Assembly (NCBI GenBank): GCA_047601445.1
Contig: JASGJH010000001.1
Span: 1,696,001-1,760,000 of the forward strand
Length of the DNA: 64,000 nucleotides
Origin: Myxococcales bacterium
GTDB taxonomy: Bacteria > Myxococcota_A > Polyangia > Polyangiales > DASUME01
Direction of reading: 5' to 3'
The notes beneath the pieces are model-generated. The model was not told the DNA's origin and did not search any database. It saw nothing but the letters and a program-made list of their open reading frames with translations. This document shows positions 20,297 to 32,099 of the stretch, piece after piece (the first letter of the stretch is position 1; every line of letters begins with the position of its first letter). The translations under genes were made by a program, and so were the position numbers.

Positions 20297-22819
20297 TCAG
20301 TGACCGCCGAGTTTCGCCTTGAAGAGATCGATTAGCGGCTGATTGATGATCCCATCGGTGGGCCACGTCGTGTTTGGATTGCTGCGGTAAACCGCGAAGT
20401 TCGGCTCGTGGTAGGCGTGGAACGTGAAGTGAACGTTGCGCGCCAGCAAGGTATCGAAGACGTCGTTCACCCAGGTTATCCCGCCGCGGTTGTCCTCGTA
20501 GCAGTGGTAGATGACGCCGAACTCGCCCAGGTACACCGGCACCTTGTTCAGAGCCGCCCAATTCAGCGTGTCGTCGATCTCCGCAGCGAGGGCGGCCTGG
20601 TTCCTGTGGGCAACCGCTCCTCCCTTCCAGAACTCGAGGCGCGCCATGGCTCGCGGGCACTGCGGGCGATTCTCTTCGGGATGCGGACGGCACATGTCCT
20701 GGCCCCATACAGCGTCGCCGCGCATCCACACCTCCACGCTGTAGGTATGGCCGGGCTTCGGCGTGAAGAAATGGGCCTGGTTGGTGAGGACCGCCCAGTG
20801 ATCGCTGTTGGCTATCGCGACGGATGTCGAGCCGCCGTGGGGCCCCGTCGATTCGGCGCTCTTGTCCCCGCTCGCTCCGGCCGGCTTCCACAGATCGAAG
20901 CCGGCGATCGTCTCGAGCGGATCGACCACGACGTTACGCACGAAGGCGCCGTTCGGTGCGAACTCCTTGACCACGAGGTCGTCGAAGTAGACCTTGCCAC
21001 CCGCGCGCTCGGCGGTGAGAGCGGGCCGCATCATCGTGGTAGTCGAAGCGTCCCACGCAAACCTCGCCGAGGTGTAGAGCTGCCATCCCGTGGTCCCAGA
21101 CGGAAGCTGCGGGGGCGGCGGGTTATCTCCGACGCCGATCAGCCCGGACTGTTCGTTCAACACGGGAAAATCGGCAGGGTAGCCGCGACCTTCCCCGAAG
21201 GAGGTCCAGTCCGCGAATTGGTGCGTGTACTCGATGGGCGAATAGAAATGGAACTGGTAGAGGATGTTGTCATCCTGCACCATGAAGAAGCTACCGCCGT
21301 TGATGGCCCGCTCGACGACGATGACATGCAGCGGATCCTCGACCCGGATGGCATTCACGATCCGCTGCGCGAGGTTGGGCCAATCCGCGGGGTTGGCCGG
21401 GGTCGCCTCGTTCAGGATGTCGTAGCCAGCGATCGTGGGCTCGTTCCGGTAGCGCCGGGCAATGGCCGCCCACATATCGATCAGGCGCTGCTGGGTGTTC
21501 ACGTTCGTCCAGAGCTCGGTGCCGCCGCCCGTCGATTGATAGCCACCCTGGGGGACGTGCACGTTCAAGACTAGATAGACGCCGTGGGCGCGGGCCCACT
21601 CGATGTTCTTGTCGATCCAGTCCCAACCGCTCTTCTTGTAGCGGCGTGGCAGCCCCGTGGTCCCTGGGGCGGGGTCGTCTTCGAGGAGCTGGTAGTTCAG
21701 GTAGAAGCGGACGGCGTTCATTCCCCACTGAGAGATGCGCGCGAAGTCGTCCTCGTTGTGGTGAAAAGCCGGCGGTTGAGTCGGCAAGCCCCACACGCTG
21801 TTCCCGAAGGCGACGCCGCGCAGCATGGTCTTCTGGCCGGCATCGTTCACGAGATCCTGGAGCTGGCGCTTCAACATCCGCGGAGAGCCCACGCGCCCGA
21901 TGCGATTCTGGCGACGCCCCACGTCCTCGTAGTGCTGGATGGCCCAGCGCCAGGAGGTGCCGTACTGAGCCGCCACGTCCGCATAGAGTTGCGAGTACTC
22001 CTTGACGTGAAAATCAGGCGCAGAGGGGCGCCCCTCGACCATGCCGGTGTCGAAGAAATGATGCAGCCCCAGCAGGTTCGTCGGATTCGCGGCGCGAAGC
22101 TCCGGGTTGATGCCGAGGTAGTACGCAGAGTGGATCGCGTAGCTCGCACGACGCCCTTCACCCACGCCGTGAACGAGCCAGTGCATCGTGGCGCCGTAGT
22201 CGTCGTAGTTCTCGGCGATGTCCGGGTTGTATTTCTTGTACTCGTCCAGATTGAAGAGCGGTGAGGTGAGGACGACTCGTCCGACGCGCCTCTCGATGGG
22301 GTAGCCGCGCGTGAGGTAGTGGTTTGCGGCCGCCACGTAGTTGATGCCGAAGGCCTTCTGGAGATCGGCGTAGATGCGAAGATACTCCTTCACGTAGAAA
22401 TCGTCGGCCGACGCGCGCCCCTCTTTCACGCCAGCGACCACGTAGTGGTTGACGTGCTGCGGCCAGCTCGCTGAGCCAGTGCCGTAGGCGGTGACCAAAT
22501 CCGGATTCAGCCGGGCGTAGGCCTGGACGTCGAAGGTCGAAGAGGCGCGTCGCCCCTCGCCAATGCCGGTCGTCCACCAGTGGGATTGGAGCTGCGCATC
22601 CGTCATCGAAGCCAGATCCGCATTTCTGGTTCGGTAATACTTCACGTTGAAGACGAACGGGCTGAACGCCTTCGCCTGATCGAGCGCGCTCTCGACACGG
22701 CCGACTTCTTCGAGGGGCTCGCTCGTCTCTTCATCCGGGCCGCAGCTACCAGCGGCGACGAGCACGACAACCAATAGGACTCGAGCGAGTCCCTCACGGG
22801 CGCGTTGGGTTTGGCTCAT
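20297..22819 (-). CDS. GH5 glycoside hydrolase lipoprotein with six N-terminal repeats and an inserted CBM-like domain
   Basis: Lipobox AAGSC. GH5 motifs MNAVRF, YDILNE (acid/base), FHFYSP and YLGEFG (nucleophile). Start placed at ATG 22819 (MSQTQ). Confidence 0.88.
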   Translation of the reverse strand: MSQTQRAREGLARVLLVVVLVAAGSCGPDEETSEPLEEVGRVESALDQAKAFSPFVFNVKYYRTRNADLASMTDAQLQSHWWTTGIGEGRRASSTFDVQAYARLNPDLVTAYGTGSASWPQHVNHYVVAGVKEGRASADDFYVKEYLRIYADLQKAFGINYVAAANHYLTRGYPIERRVGRVVLTSPLFNLDEYKKYNPDIAENYDDYGATMHWLVHGVGEGRRASYAIHSAYYLGINPELRAANPTNLLGLHHFFDTGMVEGRPSAPDFHVKEYSQLYADVAAQYGTSWRWAIQHYEDVGRRQNRIGRVGSPRMLKRQLQDLVNDAGQKTMLRGVAFGNSVWGLPTQPPAFHHNEDDFARISQWGMNAVRFYLNYQLLEDDPAPGTTGLPRRYKKSGWDWIDKNIEWARAHGVYLVLNVHVPQGGYQSTGGGTELWTNVNTQQRLIDMWAAIARRYRNEPTIAGYDILNEATPANPADWPNLAQRIVNAIRVEDPLHVIVVERAINGGSFFMVQDDNILYQFHFYSPIEYTHQFADWTSFGEGRGYPADFPVLNEQSGLIGVGDNPPPPQLPSGTTGWQLYTSARFAWDASTTTMMRPALTAERAGGKVYFDDLVVKEFAPNGAFVRNVVVDPLETIAGFDLWKPAGASGDKSAESTGPHGGSTSVAIANSDHWAVLTNQAHFFTPKPGHTYSVEVWMRGDAVWGQDMCRPHPEENRPQCPRAMARLEFWKGGAVAHRNQAALAAEIDDTLNWAALNKVPVYLGEFGVIYHCYEDNRGGITWVNDVFDTLLARNVHFTFHAYHEPNFAVYRSNPNTTWPTDGIINQPLIDLFKAKLGGH
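21890..22666 (-). repeat. Six protein-level repeats of about 43 aa, arranged ABC-ABC
   Basis: Consensus F..xxY...(N/Y)(P/A)DL....H(W/Y/F)...G..EGR. Units 1/4 end EGRRAS, 2/5 end EGR.SA, 3/6 end R.GRV. Confidence 0.8.
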
Positions 22820-23416
22820 TCCGCACGCGTAACAGGAGTGCATGCTGCTTGGGCGTAGCGTCACCCCGTATGACCGTGAGGTCCCACGGCCACGCTCGAC
22901 GCCATCCGTATCGACACGCGTGCCCAAATGGGGACGAACCAGGGCGCGCGCGATCCAGCGAAGCGCCGTGATGATGCCGCGCTCGAAGTTCTCACGCTGT
23001 TCGCGGTGCCCTGAGTTGACCCGGACGCGGAGGCACGAGCTCTACCTGCGCTTCCCCCGATCGAGTTCACGGTCCGCTCGAAGCAATCATGCACGACGCA
23101 CACCCTTGGCTCCCTGCGCGTACAGGCAGAGCCCTTCGGGTCGCACTGCTTTGGCGAGGCAGGCCACACTCGCTAGCGAGGTGCGCGCGGGGCCGGTTCC
23201 TTGCGCGCAAAACTTTACGAATCGCTGTGATGGCGATCACCAAGCCGCGCTAACACTTCCCGCTCAATAACGACAAAATGGGATCCGTGAAGCTCTCGAA
23301 TCCAGGACGCGCCTGCATCTCCCCCTACATTGGCGCCGCGGATCCGCAATCGAAATTGCGTGATTGACGCTCACTTTCTCAATAAGCTGACCAACAGTGA
23401 CTAGGAAGGACCCACG

Positions 23417-26398
23417 TTGGGCGCAATTCAGAATGCACTGAGACCGGCGCCCGAAGCCGCTCCCGCGCGACCGCATAGGCCCCGGCAGAAGAGGCCCGAG
23501 AGGTTACTGCGGAGGGCTCCGCTCAAATGGCTCGTACGTAACGCGCTCAGGGTCGTCGCAGGCAGCTGGCTGTTGACGCGCGCCTATCTGCTTTGGGTAT
23601 TGGTCCCCCCCCAGCAGCTGGTCACCTATACGAAGGCAGCCAATCTGTGGCTGCAGGGCCAGGCTCCCTATCTCGACTTCCCGGTCCCCTACGCACCCGG
23701 CATGTTGGTGCTGTCGACCGTACCGCAACTGCTCGCGAACCAGGTCTCCTACGAGCACCTGTTTGCAGGGCTCATGCTGCTGTTCGACTTGGCGATCGTG
23801 TTCGTGCTGTGGCGACTGCCCACGGCTGTGTTCGGCGAGAGCGTCGGGTCGAAGAATCAGGCCGCGGCGCGCAACCGGTATCGATCGCTGGTCACGGTCG
23901 TCGGCTATCTGGGGCTGACGGCCGTGGCGGGGCCGTTCGGCCTCAGCAGCTTCGAGCTGGTGCCGGCGTTCTTCACGGTCGCCTTCCTGTCGGCGGCCCT
24001 GAGTCGCAAGCGTAACCGGTGGCTGCCCGAGCTGCTGCTCGCGCTCGGCATCTGGGTCGACCTGGTTCCGCTGGTTCTCCTGCTGCCATTTGCGGCGCTA
24101 CGCCTGGCCCGTACCCGAAGGCCTGCGAGCGGACCCCACGAGGGCTCGATCCCGGAGATGAGCGGGCCGCGAGTCAAGAGGGCTCGCGGCCCGGCCCGCA
24201 GGCTCGCGCAAAGCGCTGCCACGCTGGCCGTGTTTCTGGTCGCCCTTTTCTGGCCGTTCTACCAGCTGGCTGGCTCGGACCTCTGGCAGTTCTTGCCCGG
24301 CGAGTCGAATGCCGGCCTCGGCCTCGAAAGCCTCTACGCGAGCGTCGCCATGCTCGCCCAAAAGGTGTTCTCGCTGTCCGAGCCGGTGCGCACCACGTAC
24401 TCCGCGAAGGGGCTCGAGCTCACGGGACCTCTCGCCAGCTCGCTGGCGTCGGCATCCGTGTGGGTGGTCGGCCTGGGCCAGCTGGCGGCAGGCGCGTGGT
24501 TCGCCGTGCGGGTTTGCCGAGCGCGGCCAGAGGCGCGAAACGTCGTGTTCGCGCAGGCGGCCCTGGCCCAGCTCCTCTCGCTGCTCGTTCTGCACAGAGC
24601 CTCTTCATCAGAACGCCTGCTCTGGGTGGCCCCGCTGTGCGCGCTCTTTTTCGGGCAGCCGAATCGCCTGGCACCGCGTCTCACCACCCAGGCATTTGCT
24701 ATTTTCGCCCTCGGCTGGGTGACTCTGCGCTTCCATGCGCCCGAGCTGAGAGGCCTCGAGCTGCTCCCGGCACTGCTGGTGGGCGCGCGCTATGCGCTCT
24801 TGGGCCTGACCTTCGTGCAGCTGCTGGGGCCGGAGCCAGCCGCCCCGACCGCGGCACACAGCCGCGCCCAGCGCCCATGGACCCGGGCCCTCCCCTACCT
24901 GACGGCCACGCTCTTCCTGGCCTGGACCGTGGCGGCGAGTCTGAGCGACGAGACGGACTCCGACATCTTCTTTCACATGAAGGTCGCCGAAGACATCTTC
25001 GCGTCCTTCACCTTCCCCACCCTCGACGGCTACTCGGCGACAGCGGCTGGGCGTCCCTTCGTGGCGCACGAGTGGCTCTCCGGGTCGATCTTCCTGTGGA
25101 CGCTGAACCTTTTCGGGCCCTCCGGGCTCAGCTGGCTGGTGGCGCTGCTCGCCTCCGGCTGCGCGGCGCTGATGTTCTCGACCCTGCCCAAGCGCCTTCG
25201 CAACAACGTGCTCGCGCTCCCGCTGTTGATGCTGTGCACGTACATGTTCTTGACGCGCGCGTACATGCGGCCACACATGTTCTCGCTCGTGCTCGAGGCG
25301 CTGCTCGTGGGCAGCCTCGAACGCTGGCGCGTCACGCGCTCGTGGCGCAGCTTGGTGTGGCTGGTGCCGATGCAGGTCCTCTGGATCAACCTGCATGGAG
25401 GCGCGCTCCTCGCGCCGACGCTGGTGGGCGTGGTGTTCGGCGCAGTGGCGCTGTGCGTGGTCTTTCCGCGACTCCAAAGCAGCCATCCAGACGACGCAGC
25501 GTTCACCTGGGACCACGTGCGCCAGCTGTTCTGGCTCGAGCTGGCGATGCTGGCCGCAACGCTCGTGAATCCCTACGGGATCGGCATATTCTTGTTCGCC
25601 ATCAGGCTGGGGTCCGGGCCTGAATACGTGACGCAGATGGTGACCGAGTGGCGGCCGACCCTGCACCTCGCCAACCGCCTCGACTATTGGTTCTGGCCGT
25701 ACCTGGCCTACATGGCGGTGCTGGCCTGTTGCCTGATCGCTCGTCGGCGCGAGAAGCCGGTGGTCGATGTCTTTCTGGCCCTGACGCTCGCCTGGATTTC
25801 GTTGCGCGCCCGGCGCTTTTTGGGTGAGTTCGCCGTGCTCACGTTCCCCATCATGGCGCGCTCCATCTACCGAGCCCTCGACTCCAAGGTGAGGCCGCGG
25901 TTTTGGCTGCCGCGCCATGGCTTCAACATCGCGCTGGCCGCATTGATGCTCGCCACCACGCTGCGCCACGGGTTCGCCGTCAACATGTTCGCCCGGCGCC
26001 ACCTCGGAATCGGCATGCAGGGCGACCTCGCCTACGACGAGATCGCGTCCCTCAAGGCGATGGACCTGAGCGGAGCGATCATGAACGACTACGAAGACGG
26101 GGGACTCATCATTCGCGAGCTCGGTCCCAAGCTCCGGCCCGTGATGGACCCGCGCATCGACATCTATGGCGCCGAGCTGGTCGAGGAGTGGGTCGCCGCG
26201 TCGCTCTCCGTGGATGCATTCGTGGCCTATGCCGACAAATACGGCGTCAATGCTGTCTTGAGGAAGCGGTTCATGATGCGCCAGGACGAAGTGAGGGCAT
26301 ACCTCGCGAGCAGTCCCGACTGGCAGCTGTTGCCTTCGAGTCACGGTCGGTATCTCTACGTGCGCAAGGAACCGCTCGGCGCGGCAGGCCACCCCTAG
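23417..26398 (+). CDS. Polytopic membrane protein with two GT-C-like glycosyltransferase domains
   Basis: N-half resembles GT87/DUF2029 (G.APYLDF). C-half has DSDIFFH, HEWLS, RPHMFS, WINLHGG, EWRP and DPRIDIYG. AGGAAGGA precedes the TTG start. Confidence 0.7.
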   Translation: MGAIQNALRPAPEAAPARPHRPRQKRPERLLRRAPLKWLVRNALRVVAGSWLLTRAYLLWVLVPPQQLVTYTKAANLWLQGQAPYLDFPVPYAPGMLVLSTVPQLLANQVSYEHLFAGLMLLFDLAIVFVLWRLPTAVFGESVGSKNQAAARNRYRSLVTVVGYLGLTAVAGPFGLSSFELVPAFFTVAFLSAALSRKRNRWLPELLLALGIWVDLVPLVLLLPFAALRLARTRRPASGPHEGSIPEMSGPRVKRARGPARRLAQSAATLAVFLVALFWPFYQLAGSDLWQFLPGESNAGLGLESLYASVAMLAQKVFSLSEPVRTTYSAKGLELTGPLASSLASASVWVVGLGQLAAGAWFAVRVCRARPEARNVVFAQAALAQLLSLLVLHRASSSERLLWVAPLCALFFGQPNRLAPRLTTQAFAIFALGWVTLRFHAPELRGLELLPALLVGARYALLGLTFVQLLGPEPAAPTAAHSRAQRPWTRALPYLTATLFLAWTVAASLSDETDSDIFFHMKVAEDIFASFTFPTLDGYSATAAGRPFVAHEWLSGSIFLWTLNLFGPSGLSWLVALLASGCAALMFSTLPKRLRNNVLALPLLMLCTYMFLTRAYMRPHMFSLVLEALLVGSLERWRVTRSWRSLVWLVPMQVLWINLHGGALLAPTLVGVVFGAVALCVVFPRLQSSHPDDAAFTWDHVRQLFWLELAMLAATLVNPYGIGIFLFAIRLGSGPEYVTQMVTEWRPTLHLANRLDYWFWPYLAYMAVLACCLIARRREKPVVDVFLALTLAWISLRARRFLGEFAVLTFPIMARSIYRALDSKVRPRFWLPRHGFNIALAALMLATTLRHGFAVNMFARRHLGIGMQGDLAYDEIASLKAMDLSGAIMNDYEDGGLIIRELGPKLRPVMDPRIDIYGAELVEEWVAASLSVDAFVAYADKYGVNAVLRKRFMMRQDEVRAYLASSPDWQLLPSSHGRYLYVRKEPLGAAGHP

Positions 26399-26668
26399 CT
26401 GCGGTGCGATCCGACCGCGTGCCTGCGCACGAGCACGCTGCCGTCGGGCCCGCATGACGACCTAGCCCGGCCAACGTGACGGACCCAAGGTGACCTCACC
26501 GGGCTGCGGCTGGTCGTCGGCGTCCCCAGAGGGCCCTTATCAGCCCCCTCAGCCTGCTCGAATTGAGTCGGCTGGCACGGACGCGGGGGGTCGACGCTGG
26601 CCGATCCGGCGTCAGCCGGCTGGTCGGCAGGCCGAAAACAGAGCAGGATGGCCCCTTCATCGGGAGCT

Positions 26669-27784
26669 ATGACGCAGCACGACCGTGACCGGGCTTGGGC
26701 GGACTGGGCCATGCGCTTGATCGCGGCCGACTTCCGACGGTCGGCCGATACCAATCTGTTGCCGGTACACGTGCCGGGCTTCCCGGGCATCAAGCTCTAC
26801 CTCAAAGACGAATCGACCCACGTCACGGGTAGCCTGAAGCACCGCCTGGCGCGCGCACTCTTCCTCTACGCGCTGGCGAATGGGAACTTGCGTGAGGGCA
26901 CCCTGGTGGTCGAGGCGTCGTCTGGGAGCACGGCCATCTCGGAGGCTTACTTCGCCCGCCTGCTGAAGCTACCTTTCGTGGCGGTGATGCCCGCGGCGAC
27001 CTCCAAGGAGAAGGTGGCCATCATCGAGTCCTATGGGGCGCGCTGCCACCTGGTCGATGATCCCACAACGGTCTACGCGGTGGCCGCGCGGATCGCAGGC
27101 GAGGCACGTGGCCACTACATGGATCAGTTTACGTTCGCCGAGCGAGCCACCGATTGGCGCGGCAACAACAACATCGCCGAGAGCATTTTCCAGCAGATGT
27201 CCGAGGAGGAGCATCCCGTGCCACGCTGGCTCGTGGTGGGCGCGGGGACGGGCGGCACGGCGACCACGCTAGGGCGCTACATCCGTTACCGCAATTACGC
27301 CACGCAGCTGTGCGCGGTGGACCCCGAACACTCGGTCACCTTCGACTACTACCGCACGGGAAACGCCGCGCTGCAATCCGAGCGCTCTTCGGGCATCGAA
27401 GGCATCGGGCGCCCACGAGTCGAACCGTCCTTCGTGCGCACCGTGATCCACCGCATGATCAAAGTACCCGATGCGGCCTCCTACGCGGCAATGTTCTTCC
27501 TGGCCAAGCTGATCGGCAAACGCACGGGGCCTTCCACGGGAACGAACCTGTGGGCGGCCTTCGAGTTGATGTGCGAGATGGCCGCCGCGGGGGAGCAGGG
27601 GTCCGTCGTCACGTTGATCTGCGACTCGGGCGAGCGCTACTTGCAGACCTACTACAGCGACGTGTGGATGGCGCAGAAGAAGATCGACCTACGCGCATGG
27701 CGTCGCCAGCTCAAGTCGGCCTCCGAGACCGGCACCTGGGAGTCGCTCGTTCCTAGCGCAACCCTGGACGACCTTGAAAGGTGA
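26669..27784 (+). CDS. cds1: PLP-dependent L-cysteine desulfhydrase Cds1 (cysteine synthase-like family)
   Basis: [30 protein letters not shown] signature, [27 protein letters not shown] precedes ATG 26669. Confidence 0.8.
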
Positions 27785-27791
27785 GAGGGGC

Positions 27792-28163
27792 ATGGCGAAG
27801 ATCCTTCTGATTGAAGACAACGAAATGAACCGCGATATGCTCTCTCGCCGGCTAGTCCGCAGAGGGCACGAGGTCTCGCTGGCATTCGACGGACGACAGG
27901 GCCTCGACAAGGCGCAGCGCGAGCTCCCCGATCTCGTTCTGATGGACATTAGCCTCCCCGAGATCGATGGTTGGGAGGCAACCCGCCGCTTGCGCGCGAA
28001 TCCCACGACGGCGGGTATCCCGGTGATCGCACTGACGGCCCATGCCTTGGAGACCGATCGCGCGACGTCGCTGGAGGCGGGCTGCGACGACTACGACACC
28101 AAGCCCGTGGAGCTAGAGCGCCTGTTGGGCAAGATGGACGCGTTGCTCGCGCGCAAGCGCTGA
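27792..28163 (+). CDS. Single-domain response regulator (DivK-like)
   Basis: ILLIEDNEMN, LMDISLP (phospho-Asp), ALTAHA, GCDDYDTKP. Confidence 0.92.
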   Translation: MAKILLIEDNEMNRDMLSRRLVRRGHEVSLAFDGRQGLDKAQRELPDLVLMDISLPEIDGWEATRRLRANPTTAGIPVIALTAHALETDRATSLEAGCDDYDTKPVELERLLGKMDALLARKR

Positions 28164-28166
28164 CCG

Positions 28167-29375
28167 ATGCCGGGCCCTGCGGCATTTCTCGTGCAGATGC
28201 GCCACGAGCTGCGCAACCCGGTGAATGCCATCCTGGGCTACAGCCAGCTCTTGCTCGAGGAGGCTGATGGCGATGCGCTCGATGCCGAGGCGCGCCGCGA
28301 CATCTTGCGTATCGAGGACGCCGGTCGCCAGCTGCTGCGGGTGATCAACGAGATCCTCGATCCCGTGGGGTCCCTCGAGCAGGACGTCGCCGTGATCGGG
28401 GCACGCCTGCGCCATGCGGTACGCACCCCGGTGACGAGCGTGCAGGGATACGTCGAGATGATCCTCGAGCAGGAAAACGAGGACACTCCCCTTGCCAAAG
28501 ACCTGCTGCGGATTCACCAGGCCGCGGGCACGCTGGTCGAGCTGACCAACTCCATGGAGAGGCTGTACCTGTTGCGCACCGGCGCGAGCGCCAACATCGA
28601 ACCGGGCGAGAGCTCGGCCGAGGCCATCCAAGTGGCCAGCACGCTGGAGCAACTTCCCAAGGACACCACGCGCGCAGGACTCTTGCTGGTGATCGACGAC
28701 GAGGAGCCCAATCGCTCGCTGCTTCAGCGCAGGTTGGCCCTACAAGGGCACGACGTGTTGCTGGCCGCGAGTGGTGAGGAGGGACTCACGTTGGCCGAGA
28801 GTTACCCGGTGGACGTGATCCTGCTCGATATCATGATGCCCGGCCTCAACGGCTATGAAGTGCTCGCGCGCATCAAGGCGAGCGCACGTCTGCGCGAGAT
28901 CCCGGTGCTGATGACGACCGCGCTCGACGAACCTGCCAGCATCAGCGCCTGCCTCCAACTGGGTGCCGAGGACTACCTTGCCAAGCCGTTCGAGCCCGTC
29001 GTGCTGCGGGCACGTGTCTCGTCTTGCCTGGCGCGCAAACGTGCGCGCAGCTTCGAGCTCGACTACCTGCGCGGTGTCGCCGCGGTGACCTCGGCGGCGG
29101 TGGCCGTGGAGAGCGGTTCGTTCGATCCCGCCTCTTTGGATGAAGTCGGGCAGAGGCCCGACGCCCTGGGCAACCTGGCCCGACTCTTTCGGCGAGTTGG
29201 AGTCGAGGTCGCCGCGCGCGAGCGCCGTCTACGCGAACGCGTGGAGCAGCTGAAGATCGAGATCGATCACCACAAGAAGGCGACGCAGGTCGCCGAGATT
29301 ACCGAGTCGGACTACTTTCGTGGCCTGCGCGAGCAGGTGCGCGGACTCGCCGCGCGTCGGAAAGACCGCCCATGA
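28167..29375 (+). CDS. Signalling protein: two HisKA/DHp-like segments, REC, HAMP and a C-terminal coiled tail
   Basis: HELRNPVNAILGY and HAVRTPVTSVQGY; REC (IDDE, LLDIMMP, AKP); HAMP-like RPDALGNLARLF; tail EIDHHKKATQVAEITESDYF. No HATPase domain. Confidence 0.8.
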   Translation: MPGPAAFLVQMRHELRNPVNAILGYSQLLLEEADGDALDAEARRDILRIEDAGRQLLRVINEILDPVGSLEQDVAVIGARLRHAVRTPVTSVQGYVEMILEQENEDTPLAKDLLRIHQAAGTLVELTNSMERLYLLRTGASANIEPGESSAEAIQVASTLEQLPKDTTRAGLLLVIDDEEPNRSLLQRRLALQGHDVLLAASGEEGLTLAESYPVDVILLDIMMPGLNGYEVLARIKASARLREIPVLMTTALDEPASISACLQLGAEDYLAKPFEPVVLRARVSSCLARKRARSFELDYLRGVAAVTSAAVAVESGSFDPASLDEVGQRPDALGNLARLFRRVGVEVAARERRLRERVEQLKIEIDHHKKATQVAEITESDYFRGLREQVRGLAARRKDRP

Positions 29376-29423
29376 CTCAACGCGACCCCGCTAGCCCGCG
29401 TCAGGCCCGCATCAGGAGGTAGC

Positions 29424-30176
29424 ATGTCGAAGATCGTCTCCATCCACTCGTATCGGGGCGGCACCGGAAAGTCGAACCTCACGGCTAACCTGGCGGCAGC
29501 GCTCGCGGGCCTGGGCAAGCGCGTGGCCGTGGTCGACACGGACATTCAATCCCCTGGCATCCACATGTTGTTCGGGCTCTCGGACATGGACGAGCTCAAG
29601 ACGCTCAACGACTACCTCTGGGGACGCTGCGCCATCCGCGAGACTGCAGTCGACGTCACCCCTACCTCCCTCGATGGCACGGGGGGCAAGGTGTGGCTAG
29701 TCCCCTCGAGCCTCAAAGCTGGCGAGATCGCCAAGGTGCTGCGCGAGGGCTACGACGTCGGGCTACTCAACGATGGCTTCCGTGACCTGATGGACGAGCT
29801 CGAGCTCGATCACTTGCTGATCGACACGCACCCAGGGCTGAACGAGGAGACCTTGCTCTCGATTGCCATCTCCGACGAGCTCGTCGTCTTGCTGCGCCCA
29901 GATCGCCAGGATTTTCAGGGCACGGCGGTCACGGTGGAGGTCGCACGCAAGCTCGAGGTCACCCAGCTCGTGATGGTGCTCAACAAGGTACTGCCCAGCG
30001 TTCTCGAGCGCGGCTTCGTGGCAGAAGTCGAGCGTGCGTACGGAGCGCCCGTGATCGGCGTCTTGCCAGAGTCGAGCGAGATGCTGGAGCTTGGCAGCAG
30101 CGCCTTGTTCAGCCTGCGTTTTCCAGACCATCCGCTCAGCCGCGAGATGAGGCGGGTTGCGGCGCAACTAGTCTAG
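29424..30176 (+). CDS. MinD/ParA-family ATPase
   Basis: Deviant Walker A SYRGGTGKSN, DTDIQSPG, IDTHPG, VLNKV. AGGAGG RBS. Confidence 0.9.
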   Translation: MSKIVSIHSYRGGTGKSNLTANLAAALAGLGKRVAVVDTDIQSPGIHMLFGLSDMDELKTLNDYLWGRCAIRETAVDVTPTSLDGTGGKVWLVPSSLKAGEIAKVLREGYDVGLLNDGFRDLMDELELDHLLIDTHPGLNEETLLSIAISDELVVLLRPDRQDFQGTAVTVEVARKLEVTQLVMVLNKVLPSVLERGFVAEVERAYGAPVIGVLPESSEMLELGSSALFSLRFPDHPLSREMRRVAAQLV

Positions 30177-30179
30177 AGG

Positions 30180-31613
30180 TCAGCCGGGTTCGCTGCTTTC
30201 GGGTGCGGTCCGAGGTAGCGTCACCGTGAAGGTCGAGCCGACGCCCTGCGTGCTCTCGACGGTGATGTCGCCGCCCAGGATGCGACAGAGCTTGCGGCTG
30301 AGCGCGAGCCCGAGCCCCGTCCCGCCGTACTTGCTGCTGGTGCTGCTTTCGGCCTGCGTGAACTCCTGAAACAGCGAGCCGAGCTGGTCGGGCGTGATGC
30401 CGATGCCCGTGTCGCGCACCGCGAACTTCAAGAGCTTGCCGTCGGCTTCTGCCGAGACCGAGAGCGTGACCGTGCCGCGTTCGGTGAACTTCGCCGCGTT
30501 GGACATCAAGTTGAGGAGCACCTGCCGAACCTTGGTGACGTCCGTATGAAGTGCGCCGAGCTCTCCCTGGGTCTCCACGACGAGCTTGTTATCCTTCTTC
30601 TTGAACAAGGGCTCGGCCACGGACACCACAGCGGTCAGCATCGCCGTGACATCGACTTGCTCGGCAAAGATCGCCATTCGGCCCGCCTCGATCTTGCTCA
30701 GGTCGAGCACGTCGGTGATGAGCGCCAAGAGGTGTCGTCCGCTCGCGTTGATCTTCGACAGGTCCTCCGTGAAGGCTCCTTCGCCGCGCTCCGTGGCCTC
30801 TTCGTGCAGCATCTCGCTGTAGCCGATGATGGCGTTGAGCGGGGTGCGCAGCTCGTGGGACATGTTGGCCAGAAAGCGCGACTTGTGGCGGCTGGCCTCC
30901 GCGATCTCGAGGTTGCGTTGCTCGAGCTGGCTCAGCGCTTCGGACAACGCGCTGGTCGACACCTCCAGGCGCTGGTTGAGCGAAACTTGGGCGGCCTTCT
31001 CTGCGTCGAGCAGGGAGGCGTGGTAGCGGATGGCGGAATACACGATGGTGCCGACCGCGGCGATGTGGAACAGGAAGAAGAACCTGCGCGCGTTCTCGGG
31101 CAAGAACGGCGCGTGGCTCGCCAGCATGGGGTCGATGGCCGTGAACGCCAAGAGCGCGACCAAGAGCGCGACGAACCAGGGTAGCGATTGGCGCGCACCG
31201 TGGAAGAGGATGGCGACGAGCGGGGCCAGGAACGTCCACAGGATGAACCCGCTCGAGTTGGCAAAGCCCCCAAGAAAGAACTGCAACGCCAGGGGTCCCA
31301 GGAAGATGAGCAATGCCTGCTGGAAGCGAAACCGCGGGAAGTTGCGCGTGATCAGAAACACGATCGCACTCACGACCGTCAGTCCCTGATAAACGAGGGG
31401 CACCATCGCAGCGAGTGGCACGCCGAGCTTGTAGTAGGTCAAAGCCAGGGTCGGACAGGCCGGCGCCTTGGCTAGCGCGACGGTGAGGAGCAGGCGCTTC
31501 TTGCGCAACGCTGCATCGTCATCTCCCGGCGCCGCAACCACCGTGACCAGACGTTCCCACAACCGAGCTATGGCCCCCGGCGGGCTCGTCTCCGCGGTTG
31601 CTGCTGCCGACAT
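30180..31613 (-). CDS. Membrane sensor histidine kinase
   Basis: About six TM helices, then H box [11 protein letters not shown] box [19 protein letters not shown] and GTGLGL. Start placed at ATG 31613. Confidence 0.92.
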
Positions 31614-31718: not shown

Positions 31719-32099
31719 ATGAAATTGCACGTCCTGGCCGCGCTGGCCTTGTCCGCCCTGGCGTCCTGCGGCAGCGATGACCTCGGCACCGGCGTGGAGG
31801 AGCCCGACTGTCCAAAGGGCTCCACGCTCACCTACGCAGAGAACATCCAGCCCTTCATGGCGGAGTACTGCACCAGCTGTCACTCCGCTAGCGTGCCGGA
31901 ATCCCAGCGCGACGGGGCACCGACCAATCTGAACTTCGACACCGAAGCGGAGATCATCGCGAATACCACCGGAATCATCAAGCAAGCGGCGGCTGGTCCA
32001 GGCTTCAAGAACACCAAGATGCCCGAAGGAGACGGCCCCAAGCCGTCGAACGACGAGCGCAAGATGCTAGGCGAGTGGCTCGCCTGCCAAGCCGAATAG
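31719..32099 (+). CDS. Mono-heme c-type cytochrome lipoprotein
   Basis: Lipobox LASC, heme motif CTSCH, distal KMP (possible axial Met). Confidence 0.75.

Follow-up and report, generated by a model that had tools for sequence, protein, structure and literature searches.

A 64,000-nt stretch of DNA of a Myxococcales bacterium (GCA_047601445.1, contig JASGJH010000001.1), called the window below and used for all numbering, holds a cassette in which a putative phosphorelay stands next to an ATPase with the fold of MinD (P0002). The protein encoded immediately upstream of the ATPase (P0001) ends in a tail of 51 residues, and the link between this tail and this ATPase is strong because the two are neighbours in many loci, co-occur in genomes and plasmids, and appear repeatedly fused. 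We conclude that the system is real and conserved, and that it is a variant of the switch formed by ParA/MinD ATPases and their partners, used as a signalling output and undescribed in the literature searched. That search covered the open-licence PMC and bioRxiv literature, with subscription journals mostly outside it, and returned no description of a tail-ATPase system. Judging from the sequences, we lean slightly towards docking of the tail on the ATPase, which would make the ATPase the output switch of the sensors, with signals passing from sensor to tail to ATPase. The cassette and the gene just upstream of it are made of the following features:

26648..27784, + strand: Cds1-like pyridoxal phosphate enzyme (cysteine desulfhydrase/cysteine synthase family; NF052478, 554.6 bits against a cut-off of 600)
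27792..28163, + strand: P0003, single-domain response regulator (REC, PF00072) with the phospho-Asp52 residue present
28167..29375, + strand: P0001, DHp-DHp-REC-HAMP-like-tail protein of 402 residues (Pfam; AlphaFold model)
28176..28583, + strand: two DHp hairpins of P0001, residues 4-64 and 74-139, with His13 and His83 (two HisKA stretches; four helices)
28680..29036, + strand: receiver domain of P0001 with Asp221 and Lys273
29058..29204, + strand: HAMP-like linker of P0001, residues 298-346 (weak PF00672 in homologues; helix-connector-helix in the model; Atlas neighbours)
29208..29360, + strand: C-terminal tail of P0001, 51 residues, helix-kink-helix (alignment; profile search)
29424..30176, + strand: P0002, MinD-fold ATPase of 250 residues with an RGGTGKS Walker A (ParA/CbiA/AAA_31 in Pfam; fold)
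30180..31613, - strand: P0004, membrane histidine kinase of 477 residues with HisKA (His253) and HATPase_c (Pfam; Atlas features)

The gaps on the + strand are 7 nt between the Cds1-like gene and the REC gene, 3 nt before P0001, and 48 nt before P0002. The stop codons of the convergent P0002 and P0004 are separated by 3 nt. Coordinates and Pfam matches thus agree with the gene order given in a preliminary description of this DNA, i.e., a REC, a DHp-DHp-REC-tail protein, a MinD/ParA ATPase, and a kinase converging 3 nt away.

The tail reads as quoted in that description, and its alignment gives the consensus I.ID...QV.EI...DYF..L...A..LR. The first profile was built from P0001 homologues alone; the refined one has 51 positions. 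The profile search returns 2,482 representatives at 50% identity (E<=0.001), and in 122 of the top 150 the match ends at most 20 residues from the C-terminus. The conservation expected of the tail was therefore found, and in the P0001 family it sits behind an intact receiver (Asp221 in 94/94). A kink and an aromatic pair are conserved within it. Some members repeat the last helix up to about eight times in long extensions (4/150 when a strict pattern is applied; two long arrays were recognised by eye in addition), as expected for a docking motif. The tail has no match in the PDB at E<=10 and no consistent family in Pfam, where the matches are scattered, weak and of coiled-coil type; its nearest Atlas clusters are unnamed. 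The N-terminal inputs of 47 tail proteins are dCache (10), CHASE2 (9), HAMP only (9), REC (6), cyclic nucleotide (cNMP) domains (6), GAF (6), and a Ser/Thr kinase (1), and 46 of the 47 lack any catalytic or DNA-binding Pfam domain. The tail also directly follows GAF, CHASE2-transmembrane, FHA and kinase domains; therefore, HAMP is not required.

Tail and ATPase genes are frequently close to each other. Among 80 ATPase loci, 43 have a tail within 8 kb, and in 24 of those 43 it is encoded directly upstream. The refined profile recovers the identical 43 loci with nothing intermediate, and for each of the five tail-less loci tested, the genome encodes a tail at another place. The preliminary description had named a co-occurrence in Cyanobacteria and Chloroflexi, which the genomes bear out: the ATPase, the tail and both are found in 40, 36 and 35 of the 201 genomes of the cyanobacterial phylum, and in 29, 31 and 29 of the 181 genomes of Chloroflexota. 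The phylum of genome G254 (241 genomes) has 10 genomes with the ATPase and 2 with the tail, a third and FHA-linked tail being found by local search. Across these three phyla, the ATPase is present in 66 of the 69 tail-bearing genomes. In the phylum of genome G253, a tail is nearby in 4/4 ATPase genomes (of 201). The genomes at the centre of these samples were picked for carrying the ATPase. Plasmids show the same association: among 72,556, the ATPase is on 9 and the tail on 8 (second query, E<=1), all 8 being among the 9, and the pairs include plasmids of Rhizobium jaguaris and Deinococcus. With P0001's own tail as query, 3 of the 8 tail plasmids were found. A metagenome scan with the P0001 alignment was dominated by generic receivers and gave a tail in 2/80 loci.

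Two groups of loci have a distinctive content. A cluster made of a Cache-HAMP-tail protein, the ATPase, DUF7005, a cNMP protein and NHLP-type peptide export recurs in Cyanobacteria (L006, L013, L016, L021, L031, L043, L080, L211). In L112-L118, an RGGTGKS subclade without a tail is followed by genes that resemble, by eye, an alpha/beta hydrolase and an enolase-superfamily epimerase.

Within the sequence evidence, fusion is the strongest argument for the tail-ATPase link. We took the best 120 of 187 long ATPase homologues: 106 carry the tail and then the ATPase in one chain, and 82 of the 120 are DHp-DHp-REC-HAMP-tail-ATPase proteins, the domain order of P0001 followed by P0002, the others having cNMP, dCache or PAS in front. 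Many cyanobacteria carry such natural tail-ATPase chains. P0177 and P0156, which are probable frameshifted read-throughs, were left out of these counts. The linkers between tail and ATPase have 7-82 residues, and the fused ATPases keep R11 (103/106) and K16 (105/106). In a FastTree phylogeny of 221 ATPase domains, fusions form a clade of 85, a Cache clade of 7, a weakly supported cNMP group of 8, and several singletons. The REC, Cache, cNMP and PAS fusions stand at separate places in this tree (monophyly without a formal test), which suggests that the fusion arose repeatedly. The tail scores a median of 43 bits in the REC fusions (n=84) and 69.5 bits in the comparison set (n=119), a difference confounded by lineage and by the way the profile was built. 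The predicted complex of two ATPases, two tails, ATP and Mg scored 0.71, with 0.55 for one unrelated-partner control and 0.00 for the other controls, and speaks neither for nor against binding. The check put forward in the preliminary description, co-occurrence of a tail profile with RGGTGKS ATPases, has thus returned a linkage by neighbourhood, genomes, plasmids and fusions.

The ATPase belongs to a large and well-conserved family: all of at least 8,000 scored candidates pass E<=1e-30, and identity within it is 55-86%. P0002 and the tail are each present in a single copy in this genome. The Walker A of P0002 reads SYRGGTGKSN, with the Arg in place of the signature Lys already seen in the preliminary description. 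The RGGTGKS motif is present in 120/120 homologues among the matches listed, and the signature Lys of KGGxGK[ST] is Arg in these and in the 101/101 aligned members. K16 (catalytic Lys), D38 and D40 (DxD sensor), D134 (Walker B Asp) and N187 (the lone Asn of NKxD) are invariant in 101/101, and ATP-dependent dimerisation and hydrolysis are predicted. The model of P0002 (predicted local distance difference test, pLDDT, 93.7) has 1hyq as its best Foldseek match (E 2e-17, template modelling score [TM] 0.82) and aligns to MinD structures with TM 0.80-0.84 at 28% identity or less.

P0002 scores under the MinD, ParA, BcsQ and KGGVGR cut-offs (57.6 bits against 212.9 for TIGR01968 and 98.1 against 201.75 for TIGR01969), and the genome encodes a MinD beside MinE and a ParA beside ParB elsewhere. 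As described earlier, minC, minE, parB and flhF are missing from the surroundings: none is among the nine window proteins scanned, and minE and parB adjoin other ATPases far off. P0002 also lacks a C-terminal membrane-targeting extension, in agreement with the same description. It stops with the last core helix, a point beyond which the MinD of this genome continues, and has no C-terminal membrane helix; most of 85 family members end 17-23 residues past a PxHP motif. The protein is acidic (net charge -11; family median -10), and its only conserved basic residues are R175, K176 and K188, with no conserved basic patch after K188 at the sequence level. In an excerpt of PMC6803595, the MinD-MinE switch involves a contact between K11 and D152, N45 is needed for activation, and D152A is unresponsive to MinE stimulation. 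The P0002 equivalents are R11, G45 and G166, each invariant in 101/101 (residues paired by alignment with the genome's own MinD, the D152 numbering being carried over by motif).

We therefore rejected three assignments. P0002 is not the MinD of division, given its scores, the missing membrane helix, the replaced K11, N45 and D152, and the minE beside another MinD. Nor is it the ParA/Soj of partition, since it is acidic with few conserved basic residues and parB is beside another ParA. The replacement of K11, N45 and D152 by R, G and G in 101/101 speaks against a literal MinE mechanism and leaves the MinE-like role first given to the tail unsupported. A role in positioning, which the preliminary description had also raised, finds no support either, given the missing membrane helix, the acidic protein and the lack of a conserved C-terminal basic patch. 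The ATPase is likely a soluble switch, not a membrane- or nucleoid-riding positioner, with a chemistry unlike that of MinD-MinE.

Some loci depart from the single intact ATPase. Degenerate paralogues with an altered Walker A, often fused to a winged helix, stand beside the intact ATPase in L010, L012, L014, L046, L064, L022 and L026, and are possible heterodimer partners of it. Four Anaerolineales loci (L019, L027, L028, L072) have two ATPase paralogues each; one paralogue is found with a variant cNMP-tail protein, PrsW, a small Cys-rich protein and a winged-helix gene, beside a gene for an extracytoplasmic function (ECF) sigma factor. In L224 (G964:C2:855186-857235), the ATPase gene is split, its two parts lying about 1.3 kb from each other, and tail and winged-helix genes are near.

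The proteins around the ATPase have the residues expected of a phosphorelay. Pfam finds two HisKA stretches and a REC in P0001, with no HATPase_c and no catalytic or DNA-binding domain, as first described; HATPase_c is also absent from the families matched by the 94 P0001-family members, which sets them apart from histidine kinases. Its AlphaFold model (94-row alignment, pLDDT 87) begins with a pair of helical hairpins, followed by the receiver, a helix-connector-helix, and a long helix with a kink at residues 380-381, after which comes a short final helix. The two hairpins are predicted from this model to fold into an intramolecular, pseudo-dimeric phosphotransfer bundle. The fold search returned only receiver domains, and therefore no structural match for the DHp pair or the tail. 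Asp221 and Lys273 are kept in all 94 homologues, His13 in 82/94 and His83 in 58/94. In the tail-ATPase fusions, motif matches place the first DHp histidine in 71/83 and the second in 1/61, which would fit a single active site in a folded-in DHp pair. The domain order of the preliminary description stands, except that its HAMP is HAMP-like only. PF00672 has no match in P0001 and matches 24/94 homologues weakly (E<=0.1, best 6.6e-4); many other tail proteins have, at the equivalent position, a HAMP that passes the cut-off, and the Atlas structure neighbours of the linker are HAMP proteins. His and Asp sites for a relay are present in P0001, P0003 and P0004, and transfer between them is predicted. 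P0003 may resemble DivK, as the preliminary description proposed.

The sensor region of the converging kinase P0004 is of MASE6/7/11 type (Atlas feature matches 0.95-0.97). A membrane region of the same type is joined straight to a HAMP-tail in 13/119 tail homologues (38-51% identity), so that sensor type and module are connected whether or not phosphorylation is involved. L011 and L063 repeat the succession of REC, tail protein and ATPase, with a REC 64-68% identical to P0003 directly 5' of the tail gene. In L063, from a genome flagged as unpublished (G255), a hybrid kinase with a core 55% identical to that of P0004 is just upstream. What we take to be a glutaminase-like motif stands at the front of this kinase (L063:4397-6448). 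A glutaminase-like sequence also recurs with the ATPase, 3' of the FHA-tail and ATPase genes in L110 and L111, and fused to it in P0254 (PF04960).

From the observed gene anatomy, conservation, co-occurrence and fusions, we infer the phosphotransfer steps, the binding, the direction of the signal and the effect on hydrolysis. The membrane kinase P0004 (His253) would phosphorylate the small receiver P0003 (Asp52), and the phosphate would pass to His13 of the DHp pair of P0001 and on to Asp221. The receiver of P0001 would then shift the HAMP-like helices, which would move the tail, and the tail would dock on P0002 and set its ATP or dimer state. The likely target of the ATPase in many genomes would be a small winged-helix protein ending in IW..L, whose gene is missing here. 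Read more broadly, the tail could be a general output domain of bacterial signal transduction, comparable to kinase, cyclase and chemoreceptor outputs, an idea we hold at a little less than even: thousands of one- and two-component sensors would converge on one dedicated Arg-Walker MinD-fold ATPase, a switch with rewired chemistry in the manner of a receptor-coupled G protein, and the locus would be the phosphorelay version, with its single-chain DHp-DHp.

Several observations weigh against this docking scheme. Kin are not independent, and the co-occurrence counts therefore overstate the association. The ATPase is without the tail in 5 of the 40 cyanobacterial ATPase genomes. Of the 10 ATPase genomes in the phylum of G254, 7 hold a more distant RGGTGKS subclade, surrounded by enzyme genes, for which no tail was found. 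Both DHp histidines are lacking in 11/94 homologues, and in L002 and L120 a Cds1 gene is followed by the gene of a tail protein without these histidines and by that of the ATPase, with no small REC in between; a complete relay is therefore not required. In most loci, a converging kinase is not among the conserved neighbours. The winged-helix IW..L partner was not found in this genome (best E 0.0074). Finally, the partners described for ParA/MinD ATPases have a basic N-terminal peptide and follow a matrix rule (excerpt of 10.1101/2022.06.09.495121), and the tail differs from them in its C-terminal place and its mixed charge.

Positioning through a partner peptide is established for the family (same excerpt, 10.1101/2022.06.09.495121), and the ATPase might bind the tail to cluster or position the sensors, in a cargo role like that of ParC or PpfA, while signalling takes another route. 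The ATPase could be anchored by tail proteins, many of which are membrane receptors, and 38/80 loci have a winged-helix domain with a terminal IW..L, by itself or joined to a degenerate ATPase paralogue, which could tether the ATPase to DNA. We consider this unlikely. The missing membrane helix, the median net charge of -10 and the lack of a conserved basic patch after K188 argue against a positioner, a covalent tail-ATPase fusion would block cyclic release of cargo, and 46 of the 47 tail proteins have no other output that can be recognised. Independently of these readings, P0482 has the tail and then a sequence like the winged-helix partner in the same chain.

Signal flow from tail to ATPase could also be reversed. 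The ATPase might clamp the tail, as FleN does its partner, and tune the relay, or the tail proteins might be accessory subunits of neighbouring cyclases, phosphatases or kinases, in which case the ATPase would be a modulator. Class III cyclase genes are present in 14/80 loci, and subsets of loci have SpoIIE/STAS, DUF7005, NHLP export, PrsW or ECF sigma genes; none is constant, and no enzyme neighbour is as constant as the ATPase. The cassette studied here has no effector gene, and the His and Asp sites of P0001 could drain phosphate from the small REC. The Cache, CHASE2, GAF and cNMP inputs ahead of the tail point towards the tail, and we regard the reversed flow as rather improbable.

That the tail is a dimerisation helix, with the tail genes and the ATPase co-regulated in one pathway and never in contact, is very improbable. 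The first half of the tail would, in the model, continue the HAMP output helix as a coiled coil, and tail-less ATPases exist, but repeated fusion by short linkers, co-transfer on plasmids, the conservation of the kink and of the aromatic pair, and tandem copies of just the last helix all speak for contact. A phage-defence system akin to the ConB2 clade of ParA proteins would share the PG motif after the DxD sensor (excerpt of 10.64898/2026.10.19.760177) and a patchy, mobile distribution, and is the least credible alternative of all: ConB2 has Arg for the second Walker A lysine whereas in this family it is the first that is replaced, with K16 invariant, P0002 is under the NF047398 cut-off, and the highly conserved family (55-86% identity) has sensors, not nucleases or other effectors, as neighbours.

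Docking of the tail on a soluble ATPase is thus the scheme we retain, in a cassette that may be incomplete here. Searches of 250 genomes of the bacterium's phylum and of 60 relatives (9 congeneric, 72-99% complete) did not return it. Five congeners match the window partially at 34-39 kb, whereas their matches to 20-34 kb are short and generic. The cassette is therefore sporadic and, in this genome, probably acquired. Its GC content at third codon positions (0.81-0.86) is no different from that of the flanking genes, and there is therefore no compositional sign of recent transfer. The scan of the locus for promoters and terminators gave chance-level results only.

The Cds1-like gene is the probable first gene of the operon, with an accessory role. 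It is also directly 5' of the tail gene in L001, L002 and L120 (62-72% identity), a neighbourhood that may indicate a link to cysteine or sulfide sensing. Further genes flank the cassette. Window 20297-22927 (- strand) encodes an 876-residue lipoprotein-like protein, read by eye as repeated N-terminal units and a glycoside-hydrolase-like C-terminal part. A 993-residue multi-pass membrane protein (window 23417-26398) matches neither Pfam nor NCBIfam families at the thresholds applied. A small c-type cytochrome lipoprotein (CxxCH; window 31719-32099) is divergent from the kinase and has no counterpart in the related loci compared.

In excerpts of PMC7766704, Synpcc7942_0220, All2033 and All2797 are listed under MinD as extra homologues, and Synpcc7942_0220 is called MinD in excerpts of PMC7381316. 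If the scheme is true, the second MinD-like gene that many cyanobacteria carry would not serve division. Receptors annotated with inputs and no output are numerous in Cyanobacteria and Chloroflexota; the tail would be that output and the ATPase its reader, so that one pair would explain about 2,500 protein clusters. A ParA/MinD ATPase would be added to the known signalling outputs, and the pair, a soluble peptide of 51 residues and an enzyme of 250, would lend itself to direct tests.

TadZ/CpaE are receiver-ParA fusions, and ChpT/Spo0B are DHp-type phosphotransferases without a working kinase domain. The cassette resembles the former in linking a receiver to a ParA/MinD domain and the latter in using DHp helices for phosphotransfer without a kinase. 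It differs from them by an intact receiver that acts, in our scheme, via HAMP and tail, by the catalytic residues kept in the ATPase, and by a DHp pair in one chain.

The October 2026 ParA survey of Li, Burroughs and Aravind (bioRxiv, 10.64898/2026.10.19.760177, main text) describes the ConB2 clade, including ParA-wHTH, which shares with P0002 the MinD side of the ParA tree, a Ser before Walker A, the PG motif after DxD (85/85 here), and a frequent winged-helix neighbour. The survey defines ConB2 by Arg in place of the second lysine, whereas Arg replaces the first here, K16 is kept, and NF047398 gives 78.5 bits against a cut-off of 90; on these motif and profile grounds, we set P0002 apart from ConB2. 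The terms HAMP, receiver, response regulator and two-component have no mention in that main text. Substitution of the signature Lys has precedents: it can be missing from the Walker A of McdA (excerpt of PMC8684754), and BcsQ, with RGGVGTT, has Arg at this position and no catalytic Lys (PMC9178275, Table 1). BcsQ thus shows this conservative change in a working family member; it differs from P0002, in which the catalytic Lys is invariant, TIGR03371 gives 36 bits against a cut-off of 158, and no bcs genes were seen.

FleN/FlhG, with FleQ or FlhF, are MinD-like ATPases that regulate via partner binding, and their structures are among the fold matches (5j1j, 4rz2, 8p53). They keep KGG(V)GK (PMC9178275, Table 1), and no flagellar or sigma-54 activator gene is among the annotated neighbours. 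MinD with MinE/MinC (Escherichia coli; PDB 1hyq, 4v02, 3r9i) shares with P0002 the fold, the catalytic Lys and Asp, the invariant helix-7 region, and a short helical partner candidate. P0002 differs from it in the Arg at the signature Lys, the Gly at N45 and D152, the missing membrane helix, the lack of adjoining minC or minE, and an identity of 28% or less, and its candidate partner is the C-terminal tail of sensors.

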